A stretch of 64,000 nt of DNA from an uncultured Gammaproteobacteria bacterium (GCA_964564035.1 CAZLZN010000001.1:14845-78844), one strand, 5' to 3'. Counted from the first letter of the stretch, positions 23,385-61,140 are shown. The notes: generated by a model from the sequence alone, not told the origin. Translations and numbers: made by a program.

Positions 23385-23401
23385 GATTTTGTTTAATACT
23401 A

Positions 23402-23746: not shown

Positions 23747-23807
23747 AATTCATATTTGTAATTTATAATTTGCATAAAAATTTAAAATTATAAATTGAAA
23801 ATTGCCA

Positions 23808-24563
23808 TTAAATCCTCATCTCTATTTTATTCTTTCTTAGATTATTCTTTACTTCTTTAATCCTAAGCTCTCCAAAATGAAAAAGTGATGCCGCTAGAGC
23901 GGCGTCCGCTTTGCCTGTTGTAAAAACATCCCGAAAATCCGAAAGACTCCCCGCACCACCTGACGCAATTACCGGCACATTCACACGGGATGAAACACTG
24001 GCAGTCAAGCCCAGGTCAAAACCTATTTTTGTACCGTCCCGATCCATACTTGTCAAAAGTATCTCTCCGGCGCCTAGTTTGACAGCATCCCGCGCCCATT
24101 TAACCGCGTCTTTTCCGGCAGAGATACGTCCGCCGTTTACAAACACATCCCACCCGGATCCGGCTTTTTTAGCATCAATCGCGAGTACAACACATTGATT
24201 TCCGAAAATATTTGCCAATTCCGATATGATCCTTGGATTTTTGACAGCAGCCGAATTCACCGCTATCTTATCCGCGCCGTTTTTCAATATACTTCTCGCG
24301 TCATTGACATTGTTTATCCCCCCTCCGACAGTAAACGGGATAAATATTTTTGCCGCAATTTGCTTTACAATATCCAGCATAATATCCCGCCGCTCATGTG
24401 TCGCGGTTATATCCAAAAAAGTAAGCTCATCTGCTCCTTCATTATTATATATCTCGGCAAGCCGCACAGGATCTCCCGCGTCTTTTATATTTACGAAATT
24501 AACCCCTTTGACAACCCTTCCGTCTTTTATATCCAGACATGAAATTATTCTTTTAGCTATCAT
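23808..24563 (-). CDS. hisF: Imidazole glycerol phosphate synthase, cyclase subunit.
   Basis: [20 protein letters not shown]...; ATG at 24563, 2 nt after the hisA stop. Confidence 0.9.
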
Positions 24564-24565
24564 AA

Positions 24566-25273
24566 TCAACTTCTTATCATCTCTTTAATTGAAATCTTAT
24601 TTTCATACAAAGCCTTACCGACTATTACGCCTTCGACTCCTATTGCATCTAACTTTTTTATAGCACTTATACTAGATATTCCGCCCGCTGCAATAATAGG
24701 CACATTTAAATTATCAATAAGTTTTTTAACCTCTTTATAATTCGGAACAGTCAGTGTGCCATCCCTCGTTACATCTGTATAAATAAAACGCATAACGCCG
24801 CTTTCCTCAAGCTCCCGCGCTTTCTTTAACGCGCCGGTATCTGCCTCTTCCTGCCATCCTTTAATAGCTAATTTTCCGTTTTTCGCATCAATCGATACTA
24901 TTATATTGTCCCGATATTTAATTAAAAGTTTTTCAAAAATCGGCTTTTCTATAACCGCCATAGTGCCGATAATTATTCTTTCTATTCCAATTGCGATCAG
25001 CTTATCGGCTGTCTGAATATTATTGATACCGCCCCCGACTTGAATCGGAATTTTGACGGCGTTACGAATTTTTTTAATAACGTCAAAATTTTTAAGAGTG
25101 CTTTTTTCCGCTCCGTCTAAATCAACGATGTGTAAATATTTTGCGCCTTCACTTTCCCATCGCAGGGCAAACTCAACCGGATCATCGCTATACACTTTTA
25201 CATCACTAAATCTACCCTGCGTAAGCCGCACGCATTTACCGTTTTGGATATCTATTGCCGGAAAAATTATCAC
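24566..25273 (-). CDS. hisA: ProFAR isomerase.
   Basis: [17 protein letters not shown]...; 4-nt overlap with hisH. Confidence 0.9.
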
Positions 25274-25908
25274 AATAAATTCTCCTTTCGCTCGACTGCT
25301 ATATCATAAAAATTATTCAACAATTTTAAACCCGTTTCTCCACTTTTTTCAGGATGAAACTGTACTCCATATATATTTTCATACGCGAAGGCACTGCAGA
25401 ATTTTTTCCCATATCTCGTAACTCCGGCAACAACTGCATCGTCAGCCGGCGCGCAGTAATAACTATTCACAAAATAAAAGTGACTATTATTCTCTATATT
25501 TTTAAATAAATTCTGAATTCTGAATTCTGAATTCTGAATTCCGACTTTATTCCATCCAATTTGCGGCACTTTAAATTTTGTTCTAAATTTCTTTACGTTT
25601 CCCTTTATCAAATCCAGACATTCGGTTTCTCCCTCTTCGCTAAATGACATCATAATCTGCATTCCAAGACAGATACCGAGAATTGGAGTTCCGCTCATCA
25701 CTTTCTCGATTATGACTTGGTCCATACCCGTAGACTTCAAATTTTTCATACCGGTACCCGCTGACCCTACGCCGGGCAATATCAGCGCTTCAGACTTTTG
25801 TAATTCTGAAATGCTGTCTGCAATCAAATAAGGTATCCTCAATTTTTTCAGCGCGTTTGCAACACTGGCCAAATTCCCAAGTCCGTAATCAATTATTGTT
25901 AATTTCAT
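25270..25908 (-). CDS. hisH: Imidazole glycerol phosphate synthase, glutaminase subunit.
   Basis: GxGNLxS, GVG and HPEKS motifs. It carries a 28-nt heptamer array in a loop (see the repeat at 25511-25538). Confidence 0.9.
   Translation of the reverse strand: MKLTIIDYGLGNLASVANALKKLRIPYLIADSISELQKSEALILPGVGSAGTGMKNLKSTGMDQVIIEKVMSGTPILGICLGMQIMMSFSEEGETECLDLIKGNVKKFRTKFKVPQIGWNKVGIQNSEFRIQNLFKNIENNSHFYFVNSYYCAPADDAVVAGVTRYGKKFCSAFAYENIYGVQFHPEKSGETGLKLLNNFYDIAVERKENLL
25511..25538. repeat. Intragenic heptamer tandem array (TTCTGAA)x4 inside hisH; it encodes ...IQNSEFRIQN....
   Basis: Four perfect 7-nt units, read directly. They lie in a loop that is about 4 aa longer than in E. coli HisH, by memory alignment. 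Confidence 0.8.
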
Positions 25909-25913
25909 ATAAT

Positions 25914-26789
25914 TTAAATTATCATTTTTTCAATTGGCAACACTATTATCCCTGTCGCGCCGTACTTCTTTAACTTCTCGATCGTTTCCCAAAAAAACTC
26001 TTCTTTGACAACAGTTTGCACAGAAACCCAATCCCGATCGGCAAGCGTTGAAATAGTCGGAGACCTAAGGCCCGGCACTACTCTTTTTATTTTATCTATA
26101 GCATTTTTGGGCACATTCATCATGATATATTTATAATCCCGCGCGCTCAAAACAGCATTAAAACGCATCAATAACCCGTCAAGAATTTTTTTCCTGCCGT
26201 TTACAAAAGAATCTTTATTCGCGATCAAAACCGCCTCGGAATCGTAAACTTTCTCCAATATCCTCAGGTCATTAAGCGCCAAAGTGCTCCCCGTAGAAAC
26301 CAGATCAACAATTGCGTCGGCGATTCCCAGGGCAGGAGTAATCTCCAGAGAACCGCTTATCGCAACTATCTCCACGTCAATTTTATTTTTCTTAAAAAAA
26401 CTTTTTGCGGACACAGGATATGATGTCGCGATTCTTTTCTTATCCAAATCGATAATGCTTTTGTACTTGGACTCTTTCGGAACAGCGGCATACAGTGAGC
26501 AATAACCATAATTTAAATTAAAGATCTTTCTTACATCCGGCCGCTCTTCATTCAAAATGTTTTGTCCGACAATTCCCAGATCAACGGTTCCGGTCGCGAC
26601 ATAATTCGGAATATCATCGTCTCTGACATACAATATTTCAAGCGGAAAATTCCTGCACTTCGAAAATAATTTTTGCTTATAGCTTGTAAATTCGAGCCCT
26701 GATCTTCGCAAAAATTCAAGAGTCTCCTCCGTCAGTCTGCCGCTTTTTTGCACAGCTAATTTTAAATTTTTATTGTTTAAATTTGCCAT
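25914..26789 (-). CDS. hisG: ATP phosphoribosyltransferase, long form.
   Basis: MANLNNKNLKLAVQKSGRL... The ATG at 26789 sits directly after the T-box terminator U-tract. Confidence 0.9.
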   Translation of the reverse strand: MANLNNKNLKLAVQKSGRLTEETLEFLRRSGLEFTSYKQKLFSKCRNFPLEILYVRDDDIPNYVATGTVDLGIVGQNILNEERPDVRKIFNLNYGYCSLYAAVPKESKYKSIIDLDKKRIATSYPVSAKSFFKKNKIDVEIVAISGSLEITPALGIADAIVDLVSTGSTLALNDLRILEKVYDSEAVLIANKDSFVNGRKKILDGLLMRFNAVLSARDYKYIMMNVPKNAIDKIKRVVPGLRSPTISTLADRDWVSVQTVVKEEFFWETIEKLKKYGATGIIVLPIEKMII

Positions 26790-26995
26790 AAAAAAACTCC
26801 CGTCCTTTACAACCAATATCTTTGGTTATAAGGAACGAGAGGTCAAACATTTCTCCCGCGGTCCCATCCTCATTCCCCGATTCCTGTATCTATATCGGGG
26901 CGCTCTATACCGACTCCGCATCTTGTGCGACATCGTCTACCCAATTTTACGGCTGGATTTCCGTGGAGTATTTCGCTCCCAACGCTCTCTTTATT
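26790..26995 (-). promoter_or_regulatory. T-box riboswitch leader of the his operon, probable tRNA-His specifier.
   Basis: On the minus strand: AAGAGAGCG... stem I start; GAGGATGGGACCGCGGGAG matches the T-box sequence AGGGUGGNACCGCG; a CAC is present in the candidate specifier region. A terminator hairpin (CTCGTTCCTT...AAGGACGGGAG) plus U7 directly abuts the hisG ATG. Confidence 0.55.
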
Positions 26996-27142
26996 TTTAA
27001 TGAATAGAATTCCGGATCGTGACTCCGGTCAGACGTTTTATAATAAAATTATTATATAAATATAATGCATGCGTGTCAATTGCGAACTCATTTGCTTTCA
27101 GCTATTTCAAAAACTATAATAAATCAAACGATCTTAGCAATG

Positions 27143-28636
27143 AACAAAATAAATTTAAAATCAATAAAAACCGAATTATTATTTTTGGCAGGCATTATAA
27201 TTGTTTTCATTTTATTACGCATCCCTTCCTTAATTGAGCCGCTCTGGTACGGCGATGAAGCAATCTACCAAGTCGTTGGCGATGCGCTCAATTCCGGCAG
27301 ATCAATCTACTCTGAAATCTGGGACAACAAGCCTCCGCTTCTCTATTATATATATGCCCTAGCAAATAGCGACATGTTTACTGTAAAATTCCTATCGCTG
27401 ATTTTCGGAACTTTGTCTATCATTCCTTTTTACTTTTTATCAAAAAAATTATTCGCAAACAAGCTGACATATTTAACTACCGGGATTTATTCATTATTTT
27501 TTGCCCTACCGCTTTTAGAAGGCAACATCGCTAATGCTGAAAACTTTATGCTCTTACCTGTCATAACTGCCGGATTCTTGATTTACACAACTGCTGTGAC
27601 AAAAAAAACAAAAATAATAAATCTAAAATATTTTACAGCCGGACTTTTACTTGGCATAAGCTTCTTATTCAAAATAGTTGCAGTGTTTGATTTGATCGCA
27701 TTTTTGTTTTTCCTGATATTTTTTATATATAAAAATCAAATCCTGAATAAAAATATATATCCAAAACTCAAAAAAATAATAAAATATACATTAATAATTA
27801 AATCCGGTTTTCTTTTACCTGTATTACTGGTGTCTGTTTTTTATATCATCAGCGGCAACTTTACAGCGTTTATCCAATCGGCATTTTTTGAAAATGTTGG
27901 TTACGTAGAGTACGCTAACGAATTGATAATCCCTCAAGGATTACTGATCTTGAAATTTTTAATCCTCATCATATCGCTGATTGTAATAATGCGCTTCAGT
28001 AAATCAATGTCTTCGCCCGTTTTATTTATATTCCTCTGGTTTATTTTTGCTCTCTGGAATTCTCTCTTCTCCGGACGAATATGGACTCATTATTTATTAA
28101 CAGTCTTGCCTGCTTTTGCGCTCATTAACGGACTGCTTTTCAACAAGTCCAAACCGATCAGATTAGTTTCCCTTCTCGCTATTGCTGTTCTGATTTACTT
28201 TTCAAATACTCATTTTAAACTATCAGATAAAAGCATCATTGGCACTGCACAATATTACACAAACTTTATAAACTATACAGCAGGAGCATCATCTCTTGAT
28301 GAATACAGAATGTCTTTCGACTCCGATGTGCCCCGGGATTACGCTGTTGCGAAATACCTGAAATCAAATACTGCCAAAACTGACAATATTTTTATCTGGG
28401 GCAACAACCCCCAAATATATCATCTCACAAACAAACTTCCGCCGGGCAGATATACTGTGGCATATCACATTATTCAAAATCCCGGTGCGATAAATGAAAC
28501 AAAAAAAGTCTTGCAAAAATCGCGCCCGAAATATATCGTCCTACTCGATTCCGATCCGGAATATCCTTTTTCTTTAAATAATTACAGATATGTATATAAT
28601 ATAAAGGGAGCGCGTATTTATGAAAAATCTGATTAA
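27143..28636 (+). CDS. GT-C fold glycosyltransferase of the ArnT/PMT (GT39/GT83) family.
   Basis: LWYGDEAIYQVVGDALNSGRSIYSEIWDNKPPLLYY, the DE...KPPL signature of ArnT/PMT-type enzymes; polytopic. Alternative upstream start at 27065. Confidence 0.7.
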   Translation, partial: NKINLKSIKTELLFLAGIIIVFILLRIPSLIEPLWYGDEAIYQVVGDALNSGRSIYSEIWDNKPPLLYYIYALANSDMFTVKFLSLIFGTLSIIPFYFLSKKLFANKLTYLTTGIYSLFFALPLLEGNIANAENFMLLPVITAGFLIYTTAVTKKTKIINLKYFTAGLLLGISFLFKIVAVFDLIAFLFFLIFFIYKNQILNKNIYPKLKKIIKYTLIIKSGFLLPVLLVSVFYIISGNFTAFIQSAFFENVGYVEYANELIIPQGLLILKFLILIISLIVIMRFSKSMSSPVLFIFLWFIFALWNSLFSGRIWTHYLLTVLPAFALINGLLFNKSKPIRLVSLLAIAVLIYFSNTHFKLSDKSIIGTAQYYTNFINYTAGASSLDEYRMSFDSDVPRDYAVAKYLKSNTAKTDNIFIWGNNPQIYHLTNKLPPGRYTVAYHIIQNPGAINETKKVLQKSRPKYIVLLDSDPEYPFSLNNYRYVYNIKGARIYEKSD

Positions 28637-28973
28637 CAAAATAAAATTAGACAAAATTATCAAACTGGGAACATATCTTTCACTGAGTTTAATTTTTTTG
28701 CACTTGATAATAATTGCGGGTTTTTACGTGATCCTCCCGCCATATATACCCTTATACAACCAGATGTCCTGGGGCAATGATCAGATTGCGTCCAAAATGG
28801 AGATCTTTATACCTATTTTTATTACATCTGTTTTTTTTATAATGAATTTATTTATCGGATTAAAAATTTATGAAAAAATGCCGCTCCTTTCAAGAATACT
28901 TAGCATAACAGCATTGCTTCTGTGCATACTTTCAATTATATTTATAATACGGATAATTAGTCTCGCGCTATAA
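28620..28973 (+). CDS. Small integral membrane protein (hypothetical).
   Basis: 117 aa, 3-4 TM. Confidence 0.5.
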   Translation: MKNLINKIKLDKIIKLGTYLSLSLIFLHLIIIAGFYVILPPYIPLYNQMSWGNDQIASKMEIFIPIFITSVFFIMNLFIGLKIYEKMPLLSRILSITALLLCILSIIFIIRIISLAL

Positions 28974-28974
28974 T

Positions 28975-30069
28975 ATGTCATTCTTACCCTCTTTAGTTTA
29001 TATCCCGTTTATTGCGGCTTTTTTAGCAACAGTTATACTCACGCCTCTGTGTATCCGTCTTATTAAAAAAGCAGGACTTATTGACCACCCGAAGCTTCAC
29101 ATTCATCCGGCAATAATCCACAAAAAACCAACGCCGCGGGGAGGCAGTATTTCGATATTTCTTGGTGCCGCGATTGCCGGACTCCTTGTTCTCCCTATTA
29201 ACAATATCACACTAAGTATTTATTTAGCGGCATTTATAGCGTTGGTAGTCGGCATTGTCGATGACTGGTTAAATGCCAAATCCAAAGACGTCCCCCCGTC
29301 GCTTAGATTTTTAGCCAACATTCTCACCGCTGTAATAGTTGTCGCGAGCGGTGTCAGTATAAAATTTATTACAAACCCCTTCGGTGGAATTTTGTATCTC
29401 GATATTATCAAAATACCGTTATTCATCCTCCCGTATAGTATTTTATTATCAGATCTTGTTTCGATCTTATGGCTTGTTTGGGTAATGAATATGCTTAACT
29501 GGAGCAAAGGGATCGATGGTCAAATGCCGGGCATCGTTGCAATCTCCGCGATCATAATCGGAATTTTAAGTCTTAGGTTTATTCCGTCCGGAGATTTAGC
29601 ATATATCGATGTCAAGCTTTCATTCATAATCGCGGGGGCATCATTAGCATTTTTAATATATAATTTTTATCCCGCAAAAATATTTCCGGGTTATGGCGCT
29701 ACTTCTCTTTATCTTCTGCTGGGTGTTGTTTCAATTTTATCGGGCGCTAAACTGGCAACTGCAATTTTAGTAATGGGCATCCCGACTGTTGATGCATTAT
29801 TTACAATCGGCAGAAGAATTTATCAAAGACACCACCCCTTCAAAGGCGACAAAAAACATCTTCACCATATTCTTTTACAATTCGGTTTTTCTCAAAGACA
29901 AATTGCATTGTTTTATTGGATAATCTCTGTTATATTAGGTATAGTTTCTTTGACATTACAAAGCGCAAATAAACTATTTGCAATTATAATGTTAATAGTC
30001 ATTACAATAGGTGCGTTATTTTATTTGCATCTCATTGCAAAAAATGAAACAGAGAAAACTCATTCGTGA
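28975..30069 (+). CDS. Polyprenyl-phosphate N-acetylhexosamine-1-phosphate transferase (WecA/TagO/MraY family).
   Basis: VGIVDDWL (DD motif) and an MraY/WecA-like TM topology. Confidence 0.8.
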   Translation: MSFLPSLVYIPFIAAFLATVILTPLCIRLIKKAGLIDHPKLHIHPAIIHKKPTPRGGSISIFLGAAIAGLLVLPINNITLSIYLAAFIALVVGIVDDWLNAKSKDVPPSLRFLANILTAVIVVASGVSIKFITNPFGGILYLDIIKIPLFILPYSILLSDLVSILWLVWVMNMLNWSKGIDGQMPGIVAISAIIIGILSLRFIPSGDLAYIDVKLSFIIAGASLAFLIYNFYPAKIFPGYGATSLYLLLGVVSILSGAKLATAILVMGIPTVDALFTIGRRIYQRHHPFKGDKKHLHHILLQFGFSQRQIALFYWIISVILGIVSLTLQSANKLFAIIMLIVITIGALFYLHLIAKNETEKTHS

Positions 30070-30982
30070 TTATCTAAGACTTCTTCGTCCGCGGCAGTGG
30101 ACAAAAAACCTGGCTGTTTATGCGGCTATCCTTTTCACCGGTCAACTTTTCTATTATCCTCTTTTCGAAAAAGTTTCCTACGGCTTTCTGATTTTTTGCG
30201 CGATTTCTTCGGCAATCTATATAATTAACGATATTTTTGACATCCAAAAAGATAAACTTCATCCGTTTAAAAAATACCGCCCCCTGGCACATGGGGATAT
30301 CTCCAAAAAATCCGCGATTATATTAGCAGTTACCCTCGCATCAATTTCGCTTATAGGCAGCTACCTTATCGCTCCGCCTTTTTTCCTGATTACCCTGAGT
30401 TATTTAATTCTGCAATTATCATATACAACTGTATTCAAGCATCTCATGATCCTGGACATTTTGGCACTCGCCGGAGGATACATACTCAGAGTATATGCCG
30501 GTGAAGTAGTAAGCGGCGCTCATATTTCTGCCTGGCTACTATTAACAACAATTTCACTCTCGCTATTCTTGGTTATAGGAAAAAGAAAATCCGAACTAAC
30601 CCTTCTGCGATCTCATGTTGGCGCTCAAGTAGCCGCGACCCGAAAAACACTCTCTCATTATTCCGAAGACCTGCTAAGCGTATACGCGTCAATATTTGCT
30701 ACATCAACGTTCATATCGTATGCGCTTTTTACATTTCTGGAAACCCCTCAGGGACCCCCGCTCGCGGGATTCCTGTTCCCGCACGCTTTCAGTATATTCA
30801 TCCAAAAAAAATGGCTAATGCTGACAATCATTCCGGTCGTATATGGCCTAATGCGGTATTTACAAGATATTTACGAAAAACATGAAGGAGAAAGTCCTGA
30901 AAGAGTAATCTTCTCTGATAAACAGCTTTTATCAGCGCTTATAATCTGGGCAGTATTAGTGATAGTTATAATCTACTCCTGA
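30044..30982 (+). CDS. UbiA-family prenyl-phosphate phosphoribosyltransferase (decaprenyl-phosphate 5-phosphoribosyltransferase-like).
   Basis: LRPRQWTKNL motif and Asp-rich NDIFDIQKD (NDxxDxxxD); polytopic. Alternative GTG start at 30011. Confidence 0.65.
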   Translation: MKQRKLIRDYLRLLRPRQWTKNLAVYAAILFTGQLFYYPLFEKVSYGFLIFCAISSAIYIINDIFDIQKDKLHPFKKYRPLAHGDISKKSAIILAVTLASISLIGSYLIAPPFFLITLSYLILQLSYTTVFKHLMILDILALAGGYILRVYAGEVVSGAHISAWLLLTTISLSLFLVIGKRKSELTLLRSHVGAQVAATRKTLSHYSEDLLSVYASIFATSTFISYALFTFLETPQGPPLAGFLFPHAFSIFIQKKWLMLTIIPVVYGLMRYLQDIYEKHEGESPERVIFSDKQLLSALIIWAVLVIVIIYS

Positions 30983-31029
30983 TTCCTATTGCCTTTAGAT
31001 ATATATTAATAGTACAATATCTTTAGTGT

Positions 31030-32067
31030 ATGAAAAAGATCCTTATAACAGGCGGAACAGGTTTTCTAGGCGTACATCTTGCAAGAAAATTTTTAAAAGA
31101 CAAGCACAAAGTCACCCTTTTTGATATGGCTGATCTGGACGCGCGTGATCTTTTTGGCAAAGTAACAGTCATAAAAGGAGATATTCGAAATAAATCAGCA
31201 GTCGACAAAGCCCTGAAGGGACAGGAGTATGTCGTGCACGCCGCCGCCGCTCTCCCTATCCAATTGACCCAAAAAAGTATCTACAGCGTAAATATTGACG
31301 GCACGCGCAATGTACTACAATCATGTCTGAAACACAAAATTAAAAAAGTAGTATTTATATCATCAACCGCCGTTTACGGTATTCCCAGAGACTTACCCGA
31401 AAAAGAAACCAGCCCGATTGACCCGATCGGTTATTACGGGGAATCAAAAATAGCCGGTGAAAATCTATGCAGAGAATTCGGTAAAAAAGGACTCAAAATA
31501 AATATAATTCGTCCGAAAACTTTCTTGGGAATTGAAAGACTGGGCGTATTTGAATTATGGTTTGAGGCAATTTATTCGGGCAAAAGAGTATATGTCTTGG
31601 GCAATGGCAATAACTTATATCAGCTCCTTGCAGTCACCGATGTCGTGAGCGCGATAGAAAAAGCACTATTCAGCAGGATTAGCGGCGAAACCTTCAATAT
31701 AGGAGCAAAAGAATTCGGTTCATGGCGGGAAGACTTGGGCTATGTCATTTCTAAAACAGGTTCAAAATCACGTATCACCGGCTTGCCTACAATTCCTTCC
31801 CAACTAGCTTTGTCTGTACTTGAAAAACTAAATCTGTCCCCGATAGCCGCGTGGCATTACAAAACAATGCCCGTTGATTCTTATGTTTCTATCGAAAAAG
31901 CCGAAAAACTCCTCGATTGGCATCCCAAAAAATCAAACAAAGAGCTTTTCCTGGAAAGTTATTTATGGTATAAAAAAAACAGGGACAAAGTTATAAACCG
32001 CGTCGGCAACACACACCGGGTCGGTTGGAACTTCAAAATACTTAACCTGATTTCAAAATTAGGTTAA
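31030..32067 (+). CDS. NAD-dependent epimerase/dehydratase (extended SDR).
   Basis: MKKILITGGTGFLGVHL... Rossmann motif, and catalytic Y in the context AVYGI...YGESK. Confidence 0.85.
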   Translation: MKKILITGGTGFLGVHLARKFLKDKHKVTLFDMADLDARDLFGKVTVIKGDIRNKSAVDKALKGQEYVVHAAAALPIQLTQKSIYSVNIDGTRNVLQSCLKHKIKKVVFISSTAVYGIPRDLPEKETSPIDPIGYYGESKIAGENLCREFGKKGLKINIIRPKTFLGIERLGVFELWFEAIYSGKRVYVLGNGNNLYQLLAVTDVVSAIEKALFSRISGETFNIGAKEFGSWREDLGYVISKTGSKSRITGLPTIPSQLALSVLEKLNLSPIAAWHYKTMPVDSYVSIEKAEKLLDWHPKKSNKELFLESYLWYKKNRDKVINRVGNTHRVGWNFKILNLISKLG

Positions 32068-32095
32068 TTTGGACCATTAATTTTTTTATTTACCT

Positions 32096-32644
32096 ATGAA
32101 CATCGGCTTCGATTTGGATAAAATATTTATTGATACACCTCCGCTTATACCCAAAAAAATAATTGAAAAACTATACAAAAAAAAAGATAATGGAATACTC
32201 TTATACAGAATACCAAGCAAAACAGAACAACTTTTTAGAATGCTGACTCACTGGGATATACTTCGCCAACCCTTGAAAGAAAACTTGGAATTTCTTCACA
32301 GTCTCCCAAAAGACAACAACAGATTTTACCTCATATCAAGCCGCTTCAAATTTCTCGAAAAAAAAACGCAAAACTTAATTAAAAAATACCGTTTCGAAAA
32401 AATATTCAGCGGTATGTATTTTAATTTCAAAAACGATCAGCCGCATCTTTTTAAAAACAAAATAATATCCGATCTCAAACTTGACCTGTACATTGACGAC
32501 GACTTGTCTCTACTCGAATTTGTAGCAAAACACAATCCCAAAACCAAATTTTTCTGGCTCGACACAAATAAAGATAGAACAATTAAGGCGCAGAACATTA
32601 AAAACATCAAAAACTTAACCGAAATTATTCATTTAATCAAATAA
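32096..32644 (+). CDS. HAD-superfamily phosphatase-like protein.
   Basis: N-terminal FDLDK (DxD) and C-terminal YIDDD motifs. Confidence 0.5.
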   Translation: MNIGFDLDKIFIDTPPLIPKKIIEKLYKKKDNGILLYRIPSKTEQLFRMLTHWDILRQPLKENLEFLHSLPKDNNRFYLISSRFKFLEKKTQNLIKKYRFEKIFSGMYFNFKNDQPHLFKNKIISDLKLDLYIDDDLSLLEFVAKHNPKTKFFWLDTNKDRTIKAQNIKNIKNLTEIIHLIK

Positions 32645-32648
32645 TATT

Positions 32649-34850
32649 ATGACGACATATGATATTATCTCAGTATTTCAGTGGTGGCTCGTGATCCTTT
32701 TTATCGGTATAATTTATCTCCCTCTTGCCTCAGTGATATTTTCCCGCTTTTTTGATAAGGGCTATATATTCTCCAAGCTAATAGGAATAGCACTTGCTAC
32801 ATATACGGTATTTCTGTTCGGTATTCTCAAAATAATACCGTTCGGTCAAAATTCTTCAATCTTTATAACTCTACTGCTCGCCATAACTATATTCTTTTTA
32901 TTACCCGCGAAATTCAATATTATTTCTTTCTTCAAAGAAAATTGGAAAATATTCCTGCTGGAAGAAATTATCTTTTTATCGGCTCTTTTCTTCTGGAGTT
33001 ATATCCACGGCTTCAATCCCGACATTCATGGACTTGAAAAATACATGGACTACGGCTTTATAAATTCTATCCTGCGCTCGGATTATTTCCCGCCTCTGGA
33101 CATGTGGTTTCCCCCTGAGCCTATTAATTATTATTATTTTGGCCACTTGATCACAGCATTTTTAACCAAAATATCATCCGTCCCGCCGGCTCTGACTTTC
33201 AACATCATGCTTTCAACCCTGTTTGCTTTTTGCTTAGCTCAAACTTTTTCAATCGGAGCAAACCTGTTTTATTTCTCACGCGAAAAAATCGACAGCAAAA
33301 AATTAAAAATTAAACTTTTTATCGCGGGTATGCTGACCGCTATGTTGACAACACTGGGAGGAAATCTGCACATTATTTATGCTTTTTTTGAGCCTTACAA
33401 AGTAGATGACCCGAAACCGGTCTGGGAGCTTGCTTTTAATCCTTTAAATTTTCCCAACTCCTATTGGTATCCAAACGCCACGCGCTATATCTACAATACT
33501 ATTCATGAATTCCCCGCGTACTCCTGGGTCGTTGCCGACGTTCACGGCCATGTTTTGGATATTCCGTTTGTCCTGCTGCTCATTGCGCTGCTGCTGAGTA
33601 TTTTCATAAAATCCGATCAAACAGACAACAAAAATAATACTACTACAAAATTCGGACTTTTATTACAAAACGCCAGAATAAAACAATTCACGAAGCTCTT
33701 TCTCCTTCATCCATTTTGGATTGTACTCTTAGGATTTATATTGGCTATCATGTATATGACTAATGCCTGGGATGGAGCGATATATCTGCTTTTAACGGCG
33801 CTGGTTATTTTGTATCTAATTTATGAGAAACAGAAAAAATTATCCATACCGGTTTTCCTGATACGCGCGGTTGTACCGGTCATACTTATCGCGTCATCTT
33901 TCCTGCTTTTTACACTTCCTTATAATTTATTTTTCAAACCCTTTGCGTCCGGTATTGGGATTTTATGCAGTCCTGAATTCCTGACGAAAATCGGTAAATT
34001 TGGTCCATTTTTATTCGAAAAAGATCATTGTCAGCATTCTTATCTCTGGGAGCTGTTGATGCTTTATGGATTCTTTTATTTTTTTGTAATACTATTTATA
34101 ATCTACCTGAATTTTACCAAAAAAATCCGCCGGATAGATTCTTTCGTACTAATACTCATTGCGCTTTCGACCCTGCTCATTATTTTACCCGAATTTATTT
34201 ATGTCAAAGATATATATCCGGGGCACTACCGCGCGAATACCATGTTCAAACTCGTCTTCCAAGCCTTCATCATGCTCTCAATATCAAGCGTTTATATTAT
34301 TTCGGTACTTTCTCAAACGAAATATAAAATTCCTTTCTTATTCTCCTCGATCATTCTGATCGCGCTTGTTATGACTTATCCGTATCTCGCTATTCCTTCA
34401 TATTACGGAGATTTCAAAAATTATAAAGGTCTAAATGGCACTACCTATCTGAATAATTTGTATCCGGACGACTACGCCGCGATACTATGGCTCAACGCGT
34501 ACATTGATGGCCAGCCTGTTATTCTGGAAGCGCAAGGCGATTCATATACCGACTATGCCAGAGTTTCCGCGAACACCGGACTGCCGACAGTACTCGGATG
34601 GACCGTTCACGAATGGCTATGGCGCGGAGATTATAGCGTGCCTGCTCCGAGAATTACCGACGTAGCAACGCTTTATGAAACACAAGATCTCAAAAAAACA
34701 CAAGAGCTTCTCGAAAAATATAAGGTCGAATATGTTTTTATCGGTAATTTGGAAAAAGAAAAATATCCGAATCTTTTTGAAGACAAATTCAGCTCGCTTG
34801 GCAAAATAGTATATCAGCGAAATAATACCAAGATCTACAAAGTTTTATAA
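32649..34850 (+). CDS. Large polytopic membrane protein with a YYYFGH motif; probable GT-C glycosyltransferase (Chlor_Arch_YYY-like).
   Basis: 733 aa, many TM helices; PPEPINYYYFGHLITAF. Confidence 0.5.
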   Translation: MTTYDIISVFQWWLVILFIGIIYLPLASVIFSRFFDKGYIFSKLIGIALATYTVFLFGILKIIPFGQNSSIFITLLLAITIFFLLPAKFNIISFFKENWKIFLLEEIIFLSALFFWSYIHGFNPDIHGLEKYMDYGFINSILRSDYFPPLDMWFPPEPINYYYFGHLITAFLTKISSVPPALTFNIMLSTLFAFCLAQTFSIGANLFYFSREKIDSKKLKIKLFIAGMLTAMLTTLGGNLHIIYAFFEPYKVDDPKPVWELAFNPLNFPNSYWYPNATRYIYNTIHEFPAYSWVVADVHGHVLDIPFVLLLIALLLSIFIKSDQTDNKNNTTTKFGLLLQNARIKQFTKLFLLHPFWIVLLGFILAIMYMTNAWDGAIYLLLTALVILYLIYEKQKKLSIPVFLIRAVVPVILIASSFLLFTLPYNLFFKPFASGIGILCSPEFLTKIGKFGPFLFEKDHCQHSYLWELLMLYGFFYFFVILFIIYLNFTKKIRRIDSFVLILIALSTLLIILPEFIYVKDIYPGHYRANTMFKLVFQAFIMLSISSVYIISVLSQTKYKIPFLFSSIILIALVMTYPYLAIPSYYGDFKNYKGLNGTTYLNNLYPDDYAAILWLNAYIDGQPVILEAQGDSYTDYARVSANTGLPTVLGWTVHEWLWRGDYSVPAPRITDVATLYETQDLKKTQELLEKYKVEYVFIGNLEKEKYPNLFEDKFSSLGKIVYQRNNTKIYKVL

Positions 34851-35990
34851 ACTGGGCTTTGGGGTTACAGTCGGAGCTGTTGAACAATTTCCCCGCTCTA
34901 TCTCACACTTCACATACTCCCGAATATCCGAATAATCTCCGTTTCCCGCTTTCGGGATAAGTATCCACTGATTTCTGTACTCGGCGCCGGTCGGAGGATT
35001 GATGAGTAACCCTTCACGTTCGGAAGCATAGTCGCCTGTATCTATAATGGCACTGCGTATTTCCGACTTCTGGAATTTCTGAGCAAGTCTGACAAAATCA
35101 TCATATTCTTCCTCCTTGATATCGGTAGCGATACTGTCCTTGATTACGTCAATTATATCCATGACATTAACCGGATTAAGCAGTAGATTTAATGAAAAAA
35201 CCTTATCTTTTATAGCCGAAATTACCCGCTCTTGCCTTTTTGACCTCGCGAAATCCGACCCCTCGGGTCCGAGCGCATGCCTTGACCTCACATACTTCAG
35301 CGCTGTTTCCCCATCCATTTGCACAATGCCCTGATCAAAATGCAGATGCTCATACCGGCACGGAAATGATTCCGATTCTGTAGCGCTCCCGGTCGCGATC
35401 TGCGCGGAAAGAGACGCGATTATCGTCTCGTCAAAACCGCAGGATTCATCTTCTTTTCCGGTAATAGGATATGCATAATCATCAAAAGATCTTTCAACAT
35501 TTACATCCAGACCCCCCATTTTATCAATTGCCTTAACAAACCCATCAAAATCAATTTTAACCGCGTAATCAATATCTTGTCCCAAAATTCTGGAAACCAT
35601 TGCCTTGGCAAGCACTAACCCGCCGCCCTTATCTTTCTCTTCGCCATAAACATATGCTGTATTAATTTTCGCGGAAATCTCAGGCACCCACATATCACGC
35701 GGCAGAGAAACAAGAACAGCCTCCTGTTTTTTGGGGTCAATTGTCGCAAATATTATTGTATCTGTCAGATCAGGCCCTTCATGTACGCCTCCCCCCACAC
35801 CCAAGAGCAATACATTGATTCTCTTTTCCTCAGCCTGCTTCAGTTCGATCTTATCATTTGTAACCACTTGGACACCGATAGTCAGATATTTCCACAACCT
35901 GACTCCCGCAACGGCTCCGATTATAATTATAAATATTACGAGTACCAGTAGTACTTTTTTCAAACTCTTGCTCTCTTTTTGGGTAGGCAT
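34845..35990 (-). CDS. LytR-CpsA-Psr (LCP) family glycopolymer-peptidoglycan ligase.
   Basis: N-terminal TM anchor; NVLLLGVGGG...DTIIFATIDPKKQEAVLVSLPRDMWVP LCP core. Confidence 0.85.
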   Translation of the reverse strand: MPTQKESKSLKKVLLVLVIFIIIIGAVAGVRLWKYLTIGVQVVTNDKIELKQAEEKRINVLLLGVGGGVHEGPDLTDTIIFATIDPKKQEAVLVSLPRDMWVPEISAKINTAYVYGEEKDKGGGLVLAKAMVSRILGQDIDYAVKIDFDGFVKAIDKMGGLDVNVERSFDDYAYPITGKEDESCGFDETIIASLSAQIATGSATESESFPCRYEHLHFDQGIVQMDGETALKYVRSRHALGPEGSDFARSKRQERVISAIKDKVFSLNLLLNPVNVMDIIDVIKDSIATDIKEEEYDDFVRLAQKFQKSEIRSAIIDTGDYASEREGLLINPPTGAEYRNQWILIPKAGNGDYSDIREYVKCEIERGNCSTAPTVTPKPSL

Positions 35991-36753: not shown

Positions 36754-38640
36754 ATGAAAGATATATTACTCAAGGAATTAAACCCCATGCAAAAAGAAGC
36801 AGTTACCCACACTGATGGCCCGACCATTATCCTGGCAGGTGCGGGAAGCGGCAAGACACGAGTTCTTACCTATAAAATCGCGTATTTACTCCTCGAAAAA
36901 AATATCCCCGCGGAATCAATTCTCGCAGTCACATTCACCAATAAAGCCGCGAACGAAATGAAAGAACGAATAAAAAAAACTATTCATTCATTTCCTGAAT
37001 ACAAAAAATATATTGGCAACCCGTGGATTTCGACTTTTCATTCGCTCTGCGCCAAAATACTGCGCCTGAACGGTCAATACATCGGATACTCTCCTAAATT
37101 CGCGATATACGACAGCCACGATCAGCTGGAAGTTGTAAAAACCGCCATGAATAAATTATTCATTTCTGTCAGAGACTTCAAACCTGCCTCCATTCATGCA
37201 GTTATTTCTCAAATAAAAAATGAACTTATCACGCCTGAAGAATATCCTTCTTTTGCTAGGGGCTATTTCCAGGAAGCTGTCGCCAAAATATATCCTCTAT
37301 ACCAGAAAATTCTGAAAGAAAGCGACGCACTCGATTTTGACGACTTGATCATGCAAACCATAAAGCTCTTCAAAGAAAACGAAGCTGTCTTAAACAAATA
37401 TCAAACTATGTTTCAATATATTCTGATCGACGAATACCAGGACACAAACAGAGCGCAGTACTTGCTGACTCGTCTTTTAAGCGCCAAATATCAAAATATA
37501 TGCGTTGTCGGTGATTTTAGCCAAAGCATATACAGTTGGCGAGGCGCTGATTACCGCAATCTGATCAAATTCAAAGATGATTTTAAAAATACCCGCACTT
37601 TCACACTTGAACAAAATTATAGATCCACCCAAACAATACTTGATTGTGCCTCGGCTGTCGTTTCCAAAAATACATCTCACCCCGTTCTCAAGCTTTGGAC
37701 CGAGAATCCCGGAGGAGAAGAAATTGAAATTTATGAAGCCGACAACGAAGAAGATGAAGCGCTTTTTATAATACGCAAAATAATTGAATTAAACATCAAA
37801 AATCTGCACGAAGTCGCTGTTCTTTACCGCACAAATGCTCAGTCACGCGTCTTGGAAGAAGCACTTCTGCATCATTCCGTTCCCTACGTACTAGTAGGCG
37901 GTACGCGCTTTTATGAACGCCGTGAAATCAAAGATATACTTGCCTATCTCCGCCTTATAGAAAATCCCAAAGACGTGATATCATACCGCCGCGCGGAAAA
38001 ACTCGGCAAAGGAAGGCTCGCTAAATTCCTGGAATTTCAATCAGCCGTCACACCTCAGTTAATAAATGCTCAGGGCGCGAACGAAATCCAAAAACAACAG
38101 GAAAAACCGAAAACAATCGATATCCTGGATGGCGTACTTAGAGCTACAAAATATTTGGATCTTTACGACGAAAAAATAGAAGAAGACAGGATGCGCCTCG
38201 AAAATATCAAAGAGCTCAGATCTGTCGCGATCAGGTTTCCGGATCTTACTGATTTTCTGGAAAACGTCGCTCTTGTCGAGCAGGAATATTCTTCAAATCG
38301 GACAAAATCGGATCAGGACCCCAAATCGGACTATGACAAAAAAAACGCTATTACACTGATGACTCTTCACGCCGCCAAAGGACTCGAGTTTCCATATGTA
38401 TTCATGATCGGTATGGAAGAAGGATTGTTTCCGCACAGCAGAAGCATCAATGACCGCCTGGAGATGGAAGAGGAAAGAAGACTCTGCTATGTCGGTATGA
38501 CCCGGGCCAAGGATAAGCTTTTTCTGACACATGCCAGACGGAGATTATTTTTCGGAAGCAGAACCATGAACACCATCTCCCGATTCATCTTCGACCTCCC
38601 GGAAGATCTAATAATCAAAAAAGAAGCCTTTGACTTCTAA
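36754..38640 (+). CDS. pcrA: UvrD/PcrA-type ATP-dependent DNA helicase.
   Basis: Walker A AGAGSGKT plus helicase motifs. The C-terminus ...RFIFDLPEDLIIKKEAFDF is duplicated downstream. Alternative start at 36712. Confidence 0.9.
   Translation: MKDILLKELNPMQKEAVTHTDGPTIILAGAGSGKTRVLTYKIAYLLLEKNIPAESILAVTFTNKAANEMKERIKKTIHSFPEYKKYIGNPWISTFHSLCAKILRLNGQYIGYSPKFAIYDSHDQLEVVKTAMNKLFISVRDFKPASIHAVISQIKNELITPEEYPSFARGYFQEAVAKIYPLYQKILKESDALDFDDLIMQTIKLFKENEAVLNKYQTMFQYILIDEYQDTNRAQYLLTRLLSAKYQNICVVGDFSQSIYSWRGADYRNLIKFKDDFKNTRTFTLEQNYRSTQTILDCASAVVSKNTSHPVLKLWTENPGGEEIEIYEADNEEDEALFIIRKIIELNIKNLHEVAVLYRTNAQSRVLEEALLHHSVPYVLVGGTRFYERREIKDILAYLRLIENPKDVISYRRAEKLGKGRLAKFLEFQSAVTPQLINAQGANEIQKQQEKPKTIDILDGVLRATKYLDLYDEKIEEDRMRLENIKELRSVAIRFPDLTDFLENVALVEQEYSSNRTKSDQDPKSDYDKKNAITLMTLHAAKGLEFPYVFMIGMEEGLFPHSRSINDRLEMEEERRLCYVGMTRAKDKLFLTHARRRLFFGSRTMNTISRFIFDLPEDLIIKKEAFDF
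38570..38640 (+). repeat. Direct repeat copy 1 (intact 3' end of uvrD/pcrA, about 70 bp).
   Basis: acaccatctcccgattcatcttcgacctcccggaagatctaataatcaaaaaagaagcctttgacttctaa. It is near-identical to 40509-40580, which carries a 2-nt CG insertion and a TAG in place of the TAA. Confidence 0.85.
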
Positions 38641-40433
38641 ATCTTCTCAAATATCACTAACTCTACGCCTCCAAGCGGATTATTAATAAAGGTACTTTTT
38701 AATTTGATATTCCTCAATTCGTCTTGAGAATATTTGCCTACAGCAAGCCCTTCAATTAAGCCTTGACTTTTATCTGTAACACTTACCGCAACAGCATCGT
38801 TTTTTTTAATTGCCGCAACCAAGTCGCTATCTTCATTTAGCCTAAATGCTGTTACCCTTTTCCTATATCCGGTAAGATAATTTATAAATCCGTCCTCCAA
38901 TGAATCCGATATGCCGATAGACTTATTGTCAGTACTGCTTAAATACTTTCCCGCAGAAATAGTTTTGCCGTGATTAAACTTATAGTTATACAAGTAAAAA
39001 TTCGGCTGAATATCTCTCTGATTAAAATACAAATGCCAATTCCAGAAACAAACCACTATAACAGGTATCACCAGAAGAGTAACCATTTCGGTTTTTAGTT
39101 TCATCTCCCATCTGCAATACGCCCAATGCATTGCGGCTGTTGCAGCAAATAGTATCAAAAGAATGAACCCGGACACCCTTAGCGCATTAGGATGACCTAA
39201 TCCATAATAATGGAAATCCGGAATTACCTCCGAGGAGAATATGTCGCTAACAATCGGCGGAATAAAAAGTATCGCCATTAGCAAAAATATTTTGCGCTTA
39301 TAAAAAAAGAGATAAATAAAACCGAAAATCGCAGTTATCATAGTAATGATATCAAAAACAGGAGCCGCGGCGGGATTCTTTCCTGGATTGGGGTCTCCGC
39401 TCGCGGGAGGAGCATCGGGATCAGGGTTAGGTAACTGAAAAAAAGTATACACAACAGTCCTGCTGAAATTTCCCCAAATTTCCTTTCTAAATTCCTCTGC
39501 TGTATAATTTCGGTTAAAAATCGAGATCTCGTTTGTTCTGCCCCAGAATCCGGCCGGATCCAAAATCCAGCTTGTTATCAAAGGCATTATTGATATCAAA
39601 AATACCGTAACAAAAAAAACAGCGCTTCTGATAAATTTCTCTCGATTTGAATAAAAAATGAATAACATAGTAAATAAAAAAATTACAACGGCAAAAGGTC
39701 TGAAATTCAAATAGGTATATAATCCTCCTCCCAAAGACAACGCAATTCCAGCCAAATTATAAATATTTTTATTCTTGATATATAAAAATATAAAGAGCAA
39801 GGTTAGAATCTGAAAAAATAGAGATGGAATAGGCTCATAAGCTAATCTTGACAGAACTATATGCGTATATTGGAATATCATCATGCTTGCTCCGAGCACT
39901 GCGATTACGGGATTAAAAAATAGCCTTAAAAATATATAGAATACGGCAACCGAAAATGCACCGAACAATATGCTGGGAAACCTTATTGCTGTTAAAGTAT
40001 TACCAATAATATTGATGCTATGAGCTGTCATATACATAAGCGGTGTCGGATGAAAATAATAATGAGGATATGTACCGTCATAAGGTATCCACTCCGGATA
40101 TTTCAATAAATCCAGGCTGAATACTGCTACAGTCAACTCATCCCCATACATCCCGGGCGTAATTTCTTCAACCTGAAACATCCTGATCATAAAAGCAAGT
40201 GTAAATAATAAAAATATTATTAATAACTCTTTATATTTTGACTTTATAATCCTGAGTAAATGCAGTTTTTGAAATATCATTAACCACAGCAAGGCTACAG
40301 TAGTAATATGCAGGGACATAATAAGAGGCGGGTATTTTCTAAATGTGACAAAATACGCAAAAATTATTAAATTTATGGAAATAAATGCAATTATAATATT
40401 CTGCAGTCTGATAAATTTTTCTAAAAAAAACAT
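38637..40433 (-). CDS. GT-C fold membrane glycosyltransferase (PMT/ArnT-like), located between the 70-bp direct repeats.
   Basis: 598 aa, polytopic; GMYGDELTVAV... (DE motif region). The stop codon overlaps the uvrD stop. Confidence 0.6.
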   Translation of the reverse strand: MFFLEKFIRLQNIIIAFISINLIIFAYFVTFRKYPPLIMSLHITTVALLWLMIFQKLHLLRIIKSKYKELLIIFLLFTLAFMIRMFQVEEITPGMYGDELTVAVFSLDLLKYPEWIPYDGTYPHYYFHPTPLMYMTAHSINIIGNTLTAIRFPSILFGAFSVAVFYIFLRLFFNPVIAVLGASMMIFQYTHIVLSRLAYEPIPSLFFQILTLLFIFLYIKNKNIYNLAGIALSLGGGLYTYLNFRPFAVVIFLFTMLFIFYSNREKFIRSAVFFVTVFLISIMPLITSWILDPAGFWGRTNEISIFNRNYTAEEFRKEIWGNFSRTVVYTFFQLPNPDPDAPPASGDPNPGKNPAAAPVFDIITMITAIFGFIYLFFYKRKIFLLMAILFIPPIVSDIFSSEVIPDFHYYGLGHPNALRVSGFILLILFAATAAMHWAYCRWEMKLKTEMVTLLVIPVIVVCFWNWHLYFNQRDIQPNFYLYNYKFNHGKTISAGKYLSSTDNKSIGISDSLEDGFINYLTGYRKRVTAFRLNEDSDLVAAIKKNDAVAVSVTDKSQGLIEGLAVGKYSQDELRNIKLKSTFINNPLGGVELVIFEKI

Positions 40434-61049: not shown

Positions 61050-61140
61050 TTCCCAACTATTTCTCTTTAAGTATACAGAACATACATCTACAAAATCAAT
61101 ACAGCTATTGACATAAATTTTTATTTAATATAAAGTTATT

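Follow-up and report, generated by a model that had tools for sequence, protein, structure and literature searches.

A candidate lipid-linked pentose pathway for envelope glycans in a composite locus of Candidatus Levybacteria

How does a bacterium of the candidate phyla radiation (CPR, or Patescibacteria) furnish its surface with sugars? Members of this group live attached to host cells, and to our knowledge almost nothing has been established about their cell-envelope glycans. The question is raised by a gene cluster at positions 27065-35990 of a 64,000-nt stretch of DNA (hereafter, the window), which an earlier reading of the sequence (the original prediction) likened to the mycobacterial genes for decaprenyl-phospho-arabinose (DPA) and arabinogalactan. 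Our analysis favors, with some reservation, the view that the cluster is a composite envelope-glycan locus, in which a lipid-linked pentose derived from phosphoribosyl pyrophosphate (PRPP) would be added to a glycan outside the membrane. Thus, the idea of a lipid-linked pentose donor pathway that feeds GT-C-type glycosyltransferases, which was put forward in the original prediction, gains support as a hypothesis from sequence, fold and comparative genomics. What is new here is most likely the lineage and several unfamiliar parts, the type of pathway being already known.

On the evidence of its sequence, we assign the source organism to Candidatus Levybacteria, in the Microgenomates group of the CPR. 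Homologs of three cluster proteins (UbiA, HAD and DUF2298, introduced below) that are 55-98% identical come from metagenome-assembled genomes (MAGs) labeled Candidatus Levybacteria/Levyibacteriota or Patescibacteria. The window has a G+C content of ~40% and carries FemAB, LCP and several PMT_2 genes. Many MAG records of Levybacteria bear the titles "uncultured Gammaproteobacteria bacterium," Methylomirabilota, Limnocylindrales or Saccharimonadales (loci L010, L012, L016 and L018 in our numbering, and others). Because of this mixture, record titles are unreliable as taxonomy here.

Domains were called with Pfam and NCBIfam, and AlphaFold2 models were compared with the PDB by using Foldseek. Synteny was assessed by tblastn of window proteins against 80 Levybacteria species genomes, and plasmid matches were sought by tblastn against 72,556 plasmids. 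Missing parts of the pathway were sought by tblastn in the window and 172 Levybacteria loci, and the order of the HAD and DUF2298 genes was counted over 46 loci longer than 6 kb. A scan for promoters and terminators was uninformative in this AT-rich DNA.

The first step of the proposed pathway is the best supported. The UbiA-superfamily protein of the cluster is strongly supported by its sequence as a polyprenyl-phosphate 5-phosphoribosyltransferase (PPPRS) of the type of mycobacterial Rv3806c, the DPPR synthase, as had been proposed from the sequence. It scores above the cut-off of the NCBIfam model for decaprenyl-phosphate phosphoribosyltransferase (Table 1) and just under that of a second model, NF008977 (228.2; cut-off, 234), and models for UbiA, MqnP and heme-o-synthase give just 22-40 bits. 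The best match in the PDB is Rv3806c (8j8j, E = 4e-41), to which the protein is 32% identical; an archaeal UbiA follows at 4.6e-9. In the Rv3806c structure, PRPP and the lipid phosphate are contacted by R22, K28, Y70, N73, D77, K87, R90, Q135, Y138, K143 and Y157, and other UbiA enzymes do not retain the contacts to phosphoribose (PMC10994848). All 11 of these residues, which bind PRPP and decaprenyl phosphate, are identical in the window protein, and the NDxxDxxxD motif and K/R cluster are kept. K28 and Y70, which contact the 5-phosphate, are found only in the PPPRS clade; they are replaced in Escherichia coli UbiA and MenA, and are invariant or nearly so in 21 Levybacteria homologs. Homologs of the window protein begin at the ATG at 30044, and 470 GTDB species genomes contain relatives that are 60-80% identical.

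If this protein were instead an aromatic prenyltransferase for menaquinone or ubiquinone, as is suggested by some JGI annotations that name close homologs "4-hydroxybenzoate polyprenyltransferase," then the parallel to pentose pathways would be spurious. However, UbiA and MqnP models give only 24-40 bits, compared with 214-228 for DPPR-synthase models; BLAST finds no match to E. coli UbiA or MenA at E ≤ 10; and the residues that bind phosphoribose are conserved. Clustering with quinone prenyltransferases had been named as the result that would overturn the original prediction. In a neighbor-joining tree, the window protein groups instead with Rv3806c and with PPPRS-like proteins of Lactococcus, haloarchaea, Bacteroidota and Proteobacteria. 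Together, the hidden Markov model scores, the 8j8j match, BLAST, the tree and the binding residues refute an aromatic-prenyltransferase identity, to which we attach almost no credence. In the literature searched, we found no paper that ties a DPPR synthase to the CPR.

Gene order across Levybacteria leads us to read the locus as two fused blocks, which most members of the lineage keep apart, and not as one old operon. Block A is near-universal in the 80 genomes and runs (MetRS, TatD,) GT2 glycosyltransferase, PMT_2-type GT-C, a small membrane protein, a Glycos_transf_4 phosphotransferase and PPPRS; past PPPRS, the coding strand flips. Block B lies elsewhere. It comprises PilO, an fn3/Big_13 protein, a CrtI/HpnE-like FAD oxidase, two or three PMT_2 genes, and either a GT-B glycosyltransferase on the opposite strand or a short-chain dehydrogenase/reductase (SDR), followed by a haloacid dehalogenase (HAD)-superfamily gene, DUF2298, LCP and TIM (both minus strand), PcrA and FemAB. 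The HAD gene is directly 5' of DUF2298 in 43 of 46 loci, and LCP follows DUF2298 in nearly all Block B loci. The contiguous cluster of the original prediction therefore exists in the window, where its genes are indeed contiguous, but the synteny of the 80 genomes shows this contiguity to be recent and confined to a sub-lineage. The same cluster arrangement is present on six independent metagenome contigs. This recurrence, together with the adjacency of the small protein, phosphotransferase and UbiA-superfamily genes in 79 of 80 genomes and the constant HAD-DUF2298 order, indicates that the arrangement is more than chance.

What, then, connects Block B to PPPRS? One line of evidence is the extended SDR, which has TGxxGxxG and YxxxK motifs and is a candidate epimerase or oxidoreductase for polyprenyl-phospho-ribose. 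A Halostagnicola oxidoreductase, encoded divergently from an adjoining PPPRS gene, shares 39% identity (E = 1e-83) with the full-length SDR. The window SDR is also 39-43% identical, over the full length, to SDRs beside PPPRS in four haloarchaeal plasmids, and 34-37% identical to SDRs whose genes are separated from PPPRS by 0.2-24 kb in Streptomyces, Nonomuraea and rhizobial sym plasmids. At E ≤ 1e-30, the SDR matches only 16 of the 72,556 plasmids, 14 of which also carry a PPPRS homolog, within 9 kb in 12 cases; a PPPRS-like gene of any kind is present in only 99 plasmids of the whole set. The two genes are 0.2-0.6 kb apart in Natronococcus sp. AD-5, Haloterrigena, Halostagnicola, Streptomyces and Nonomuraea. 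The distance is 3.4-8 kb in Natronococcus sp. CG52, four Sinorhizobium/Rhizobium plasmids and two Mesorhizobium plasmids, and 12-23 kb in two further plasmids. An SDR of the window subfamily adjoins HAD in ~25 of the 46 Block B loci. Some Levybacteria have a second SDR type on the minus strand beside HAD, which is closer to the haloarchaeal enzyme (52% identity) than is the window SDR.

The mycobacterial epimerase pair is not found here. With DprE1- and DprE2-like proteins of Chondrinema and PAP2 of Marivivens as queries, no DprE1-, DprE2- or PAP2-like gene was detected in the window or the 172 loci; nor was a PHP or LPG-synthase homolog. An FAD oxidase like DprE1, which the original prediction proposed to look for elsewhere, is thus not apparent in these sequences, although relatives carry an HpnE/CrtI-like one in Block B. 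This FAD oxidoreductase, which has the amine-oxidase/CrtI fold, is a constant Block B member in other Levybacteria (L087 4108-5391, L089 1825-3111, L188 15909-17171) and has no copy inside the 64-kb window. Its assignment to NCBIfam PRK07233 (375 bits, HpnE/CrtI-like) rules out a UDP-galactopyranose mutase. On pNGR234a, a GMC-type FAD oxidase lies beside the SDR homolog. The PRK07233-type and GMC-type oxidases could be non-orthologous counterparts of DprE1 that partner the SDR.

The HAD protein has no Pfam or NCBIfam match even at E = 10. However, its AlphaFold2 model (pLDDT 88) matches, at E ≤ 1e-3, only HAD-superfamily structures in the PDB, nearly all of them phosphatases. HAD motifs I-IV (D6xD8, S81/S82, K120 and D134-D136) are invariant in 32 homologs. 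The predicted fold and motifs thus place the protein in the HAD superfamily, as a small, undescribed family and as a candidate 5'-phosphatase of the lipid-linked phosphoribose. The original prediction had this protein replace the PAP2 phosphatase of mycobacteria. Fold, motifs and the search for PAP2 agree with such a replacement; the 5-phosphatase role itself we infer.

A second line of evidence comes from a GT-B glycosyltransferase associated with HAD. A profile of the HAD family retrieves 231 representatives (50%-identity clusters) among 1.84 billion sequences, of which 13 are longer (314-601 aa). Nine of the 13 were scanned with Pfam: all seven full-length proteins (551-601 aa) have an N-terminal HAD and a C-terminal GT-B domain (CAZy GT4), and the two shorter ones (314 and 414 aa) bear a GT-B N-terminal domain. 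A rearranged Block B contains one such fusion gene, adjoined by DUF2298, LCP and PMT_2 genes. Identity of the stand-alone Levybacteria GT-B, encoded beside HAD, to the fusion domains is 27-38% over all seven and reaches 35-38% for the closest. At E ≤ 1e-25, this GT-B matches exactly one plasmid, that of Marivivens, in which the gene order is EamA, GT-B, PPPRS, PAP2. There, PAP2 accompanies the GT-B subfamily that CPR relatives fuse to HAD or place beside it.

Thus, in hosts from unrelated phyla (archaea, rhizobia, actinomycetes and a roseobacter), the closest plasmid relatives of both the SDR and GT-B subfamilies reside beside PPPRS. These two independent lines lead us to conclude, from gene neighborhoods, that Block B is linked to the PPPRS pathway. 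In locus L138 (7404-11748), an SDR-HAD pair is followed by a GT-B gene on the opposite strand and preceded by a gene for a 536-aa membrane protein, and DUF2298 is absent. Because this locus has SDR, HAD and GT-B without DUF2298, the soluble trio seems to be the stable core, to which a variable GT-C partner is added.

In the window, the gene after HAD encodes a protein of the DUF2298 (YYY) family. Such proteins are widespread in Chloroflexi, Archaea, Firmicutes and CPR, and in the literature searched we found no paper that gives them a function. The AlphaFold2 model (pLDDT 77.5, pTM 0.81) has ~13 membrane helices and a C-terminal mixed α/β domain. Its only credible Foldseek match in the PDB is the arabinofuranosyltransferase AftA (8if8; probability 1.0, E = 2.6e-3, TM-scores 0.37/0.43 over 639 columns), with Pmt1 far behind; a sequence profile finds nothing among PDB sequences. 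D36, just past the first transmembrane segment (TM1), and the motif N160-YYY-xGH166 are invariant. These features are weakly suggestive of a GT-C glycosyltransferase that uses a pentofuranosyl donor. The original prediction took the protein for a GT-C, and structural comparison leaves this as a candidate assignment, with AftA the sole credible match and a weak one. Beside the HAD::PPPRS fusion gene of Sinorhizobium fredii NGR234, pNGR234a encodes a 658-aa hypothetical membrane protein (L183 12356-14332, minus strand). Its FD motif after TM1 and its YYY motif align with those of DUF2298 at similar spacing, with no significant hhalign score, and it is possibly a very distant relative.

The genes of the window cluster are listed in Table 1. 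The seven named in the original prediction are all real open reading frames (ORFs), at or near the places assigned to them, and their domains were checked with Pfam and NCBIfam or, for HAD, by fold. The conserved 117-aa membrane protein had been overlooked. From PMT_2 to DUF2298, successive plus-strand genes are separated by a 17-nt overlap, a 1-nt gap, a 26-nt overlap, and gaps of 47, 28 and 4 nt, a tight spacing that is compatible with one transcript. The LCP gene is convergent and overlaps DUF2298 by 6 nt. A his operon (23106-26816, minus strand) that encodes HisG, a glutamine amidotransferase, two His_biosynth proteins and two small ORFs splits GT2 from PMT_2. Judged by gene spacing, this insertion is present in the window and L007 only, and not in L093, L099 or other genomes.

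Table 1. Genes of the composite envelope-glycan locus, in window coordinates
Gene product	Position	Strand	Family match or other evidence
GT2 membrane glycosyltransferase, 497 aa	21612-23105	+	Pfam Glyco_trans_2_3, 30.6 bits; first gene of Block A
PMT_2 GT-C, ArnT/PMT-like	27140-28636 (ORF from 27065)	+	PF13231, 31.7 bits (cut-off 26.1)
Small membrane protein, 117 aa	28620-28973	+	Matches no family; ~3 hydrophobic segments
Glycos_transf_4 phosphotransferase, MraY/WecA superfamily	28975-30069	+	PF00953, 77.6 bits
PPPRS, UbiA superfamily	30044-30982 (ORF from GTG 30011)	+	NF008978, 214.5 bits (cut-off 207)
Extended SDR	31030-32067	+	PF01370, 148 bits
HAD-superfamily protein, soluble	32096-32644	+	AlphaFold2 fold and motifs; no family-model match
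DUF2298/chlor_Arch_YYY, 733 aa	32649-34850	+	TIGR03662, 512 bits
LCP (LytR-CpsA-Psr)	34845-35990	-	PF03816, 111 bits; TIGR00350, 101.7 bits (cut-off 62.3)

The GT2 protein has hydrophobic segments at both termini, and its gene is directly 5' of PMT_2 in most of the 80 genomes. The PMT_2 protein (498 aa from the start used in public gene calls) has ~9 hydrophobic segments and is syntenic with PPPRS in at least 75 of 80 genomes; PPPRS genes of Legionella, Chondrinema and haloarchaea likewise have GT39/PMT-like GT-Cs as neighbors. The 117-aa protein lies between PMT_2 and the phosphotransferase in 79 of 80 genomes. It has no Pfam or NCBIfam match even at E = 10 and no similarity to the GtrA or EamA flippases of other PPPRS clusters; by position, it is a candidate flippase or accessory subunit. 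The phosphotransferase, whose gene is always immediately upstream of PPPRS, scores below the equivalog cut-offs for MraY (57.4; cut-off, 192) and WecA (71.6; cut-off, 326), and has a weak PDB match to an MraY (E = 1e-11). It is probably a polyprenyl-phosphate sugar-1-phosphate transferase that initiates a lipid-linked glycan, as a member of the superfamily and not a true MraY. The LCP protein has a single N-terminal transmembrane segment before its LCP domain. Just downstream of the cluster (38637-40433, minus strand, and 40812-41948, plus strand), PcrA and a FemAB-family gene flank a second PMT_2-type GT-C, of 598 aa, which may belong to the same envelope system.

These parts can be arranged into a pathway. 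On the cytoplasmic face, PPPRS would transfer 5-phosphoribose from PRPP to polyprenyl phosphate, the step for which sequence support is strong. The HAD phosphatase would then remove the 5-phosphate, and, as its subfamily association suggests, the extended SDR would change the configuration of the ribose. Like ORF13 of Citrobacter youngae O2, the SDR might be a single-enzyme epimerase; alternatively, it might provide the reductase half of an oxido-reduction. What results would be a polyprenyl-phospho-pentofuranose, whose sugar could be ribose (Ribf), xylose (Xylf) or arabinose (Araf). After the lipid-linked sugar is flipped, perhaps by the 117-aa protein, for which position is the argument, one or both GT-Cs (PMT_2 and the AftA-like DUF2298) would pass the pentose to an acceptor glycan outside the membrane. 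The gene set suggests that the acceptor is probably a polyprenyl-diphosphate-linked polymer, initiated by the Glycos_transf_4 phosphotransferase, extended by GT2, and ligated to peptidoglycan by LCP.

Several observations weigh against this pathway. Only the window and the relatives nearest to it (L007, L093 and L099) have the order SDR-HAD-DUF2298-LCP after PPPRS. In L007 (10942-12096) and L093 (7401-8904), moreover, the PPPRS/SDR junction holds toxin-antitoxin-like genes (a PIN-like toxin, a small antitoxin and a P-loop kinase-like ORF), which fits a rearrangement breakpoint or insertion hot spot. The position of LCP may reflect mere gene-order conservation, because synteny extends equally to TIM and PcrA, which are housekeeping genes. 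The match of DUF2298 to AftA is weak (TM ~0.4), and hhalign comparisons of DUF2298 with the GT-Cs beside PPPRS in Lactococcus, Marivivens and NGR234 are not significant. A DUF2298 gene is also found on a Pseudobutyrivibrio plasmid, in a polysaccharide cluster that lacks PPPRS. The HAD profile has no hhalign similarity to the HAD-IB protein of Lactococcus or the N-terminal, presumed phosphatase domain of a Vibrio fusion, a comparison whose sensitivity is limited by single-sequence templates. HAD is fused only to GT-B and not to PPPRS, and its substrate could be another phospho-intermediate. Finally, no MATE, SMR, GtrA or EamA flippase homolog was detected in the window or the 172 loci.

Some of these facts are what would be expected if two unrelated pathways had been juxtaposed. 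Block A would then be self-contained, and SDR-HAD-DUF2298 would take part in modifying some other glycan or lipid. In that event, a nucleotide sugar would be the substrate of the SDR, and HAD would act on some phospho-intermediate, soluble or otherwise. The separation of the blocks in most Levybacteria, the toxin-antitoxin genes at the junction, the Pseudobutyrivibrio plasmid, the fusion of HAD to GT-B, and its lack of sequence relationship to the Lactococcus and Vibrio domains all speak for such an accident. However, the only close plasmid relatives of the SDR and GT-B subfamilies lie beside PPPRS, in four unrelated phyla, which chance hardly explains, and Block A encodes neither a phosphatase nor an epimerase. 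We therefore regard mere juxtaposition as quite improbable. A less drastic departure concerns HAD, which might pair with GT-B to dephosphorylate an acceptor that is glycosylated while phosphorylated; the 5-phosphate of the lipid-linked ribose would then stay or be removed by another enzyme. Such synthase/phosphatase logic is established for pairs of GT-B and HAD enzymes, such as sucrose-phosphate synthase and phosphatase, and the recurrent HAD::GT-B fusions (nine cluster representatives) and the divergent GT-B and HAD gene pairs are in keeping with it. Yet the window holds HAD and has no GT-B gene in its 64 kb, and in Marivivens the same GT-B subfamily lies between EamA and PPPRS-PAP2. The Marivivens arrangement implies that the phospho-intermediate of GT-B may be the PPPRS product itself, in which case this explanation would merge with the proposed pathway. 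As a distinct explanation, we hold it to be rather unlikely, though deserving of attention.

The acceptor could also be other than a polymer. A lipid-linked pentose made as proposed might be transferred by a GT-C to a surface protein such as type IV pilin, an O-glycosylation in the manner of pilin arabinosylation in Pseudomonas aeruginosa. PPPRS-dependent pilin glycosylation has precedent (cited in PMC11127046). PilO and an fn3/Big_13 surface-protein gene adjoin the start of Block B in other Levybacteria, and protein O-glycosyltransferases exist among PMT_2-type GT-Cs. Opposed to this are the absence of a pilin gene from the window cluster and the presence of the phosphotransferase abutting PPPRS and of LCP after DUF2298, which point to a lipid-diphosphate-linked polymer destined for peptidoglycan; a protein acceptor thus seems unlikely. 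The most complete form of the proposed pathway is that Levybacteria, and probably neighboring Microgenomates, make a peptidoglycan-attached pentofuranose polymer, an analog of arabinogalactan specified by two loci of largely non-orthologous parts. DUF2298 would be a new AftA-like family of pentofuranosyltransferases, HAD a new family in place of PAP2, and the SDR a general polyprenyl-phospho-ribose epimerase that acts alone or with an FAD oxidase other than DprE1. Taken as a whole, polymer included, we offer this reading only tentatively and think it less likely than not to be right. Nothing shows the sugar to be arabinose or the product to resemble arabinogalactan.

Where does such a pathway stand among known systems? 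The closest is the three-component pathway (Kelly et al. 2024), which comes ahead of the DprE1/E2 route to arabinogalactan. In the pentofuranose system of C. youngae O1/O2, ORF15 is a PRP-PPPRS, ORF14 a flippase, ORF12 a GT-C (GT136) and ORF13 an SDR (PMC11127046). The UbiA-type synthase with its HAD phosphatase domain yields undecaprenyl-phospho-ribofuranose, which the optional GalE-like ORF13 converts to a xylofuranose donor; the flippase exports the donor, and the GT-C adds its sugar to the glycan (PMC11127046). Both HAD phosphatases and single SDR epimerases are thus already known in such pathways (Kelly et al. 2024, PMC11127046). Likewise encoded in the window are a UbiA-family synthase predicted to use PRPP, a candidate phosphatase of HAD fold, GT-Cs and, instead of DprE1/E2, a GalE-like SDR. 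A GT-C encoded with the synthase, as the three-component system calls for, is present as PMT_2, and in the window DUF2298 adjoins as well. We set the SDR beside ORF13 by its described role. A cluster of Rhizobium sp. CCGE531, an "elaborate" candidate of Kelly et al. (PMC11127046), contains a homolog of the window SDR with 36% identity. However, Levybacteria encode HAD on its own, as a member of an undescribed family, and not as an N-terminal PRP domain; PMT_2 and the candidate DUF2298 take the place of GT136 among the GT-Cs; the genes occupy two loci in most relatives; and a MATE, SMR, GtrA or EamA flippase was not found. The partners in this monoderm CPR bacterium are a Glycos_transf_4 phosphotransferase and LCP, whereas the C. 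youngae system serves O-antigen.

The parallel to mycobacteria in the original prediction holds in part. The Rv3806c-type enzyme, an initiator of the WecA/MraY superfamily, GT-Cs, among them the candidate DUF2298 with its weak match to AftA, and an LCP ligase are shared with the DPA/arabinogalactan system. However, neither PAP2 (Rv3807c) nor DprE1 (VAO-type FAD) nor DprE2 (classical SDR) was found, there is no evidence for arabinose, galactan or mycolate, and the three-component system is closer. Rv3806c-type enzymes, lipid-linked pentofuranose and a membrane transferase also occur in rhizobial noeCHOP arabinosylation of Nod factors (PMC5080398) and in D-arabinofuranosylation of P. aeruginosa pilin (PMC11127046), but these systems use DprE1/DprE2 homologs and act on lipo-chitooligosaccharides or pilin. 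Like the assembly of wall glycopolymers in Gram-positive bacteria, the Levybacteria pathway would combine TagO/WecA-type initiation, LCP ligation and three-component decoration. An instance in a monoderm is Lactococcus plasmid pLLF27D, with PPPRS, a stand-alone HAD-IB, GtrA, a nearby LCP and a possible GT-C (unannotated, 533 aa). It differs in that its HAD is recognized by Pfam as HAD-IB and is unrelated to the window HAD, its small protein is GtrA, and it lacks SDR and DUF2298. Haloarchaeal plasmids (Halostagnicola, Haloterrigena and Natronococcus) and Streptomyces sp. SAT1 carry the same SDR subfamily (35-43% identity) beside PPPRS and also encode a phosphatase and either a GT-C or a GT2, with products as named in the plasmid records. 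In contrast to the window, their phosphatase is PHP or EEP, they encode an LPG_synthase_TM protein, and they lack DUF2298, the Glycos_transf_4 phosphotransferase and LCP.

Across PPPRS clusters, the phosphatase is PAP2 in Marivivens, HAD-IB in Lactococcus, PHP in haloarchaea and EEP in Streptomyces, and the epimerase step is assigned to a DprE1/E2-like pair in Chondrinema or to an extended SDR. This indicates a modular pathway, in which the phosphatase (PAP2, HAD, PHP or EEP) and epimerase (DprE1/E2 or extended SDR) steps have repeatedly been filled by unrelated enzymes. If the proposed pathway is correct, lipid-linked pentofuranose glycosylation, which was defined only recently, extends to a new phylum. 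Because the pathway is kept at 60-80% identity over hundreds of Levybacteria species, it is likely central to their surface. It also provides first testable roles for DUF2298/YYY proteins, for an unannotated HAD family, and for an SDR subfamily that accompanies Rv3806c-type enzymes in Bacteria and Archaea.

Other features of the window lie away from the cluster. Three ORFs, at 4986-6752 (588 aa), 19258-20748 (496 aa) and 48475-50790 (771 aa), match no Pfam or NCBIfam model credibly; the last has just two NCBIfam matches, far below cut-off. A 764-aa protein with a Baseplate_J-like domain (579-2873, minus strand; PF04865, E = 1e-9) may be part of a prophage or contractile injection system. PF00374, the family of NiFe-hydrogenase large subunits, is matched in its C-terminal part by a 434-aa protein (56961-58265, plus strand; E = 1e-27). 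Upstream of an ORF at 61287-62240 resides a SAM (S-box) riboswitch (61140-61239, plus strand), which scores 55 bits against a gathering score of 44.

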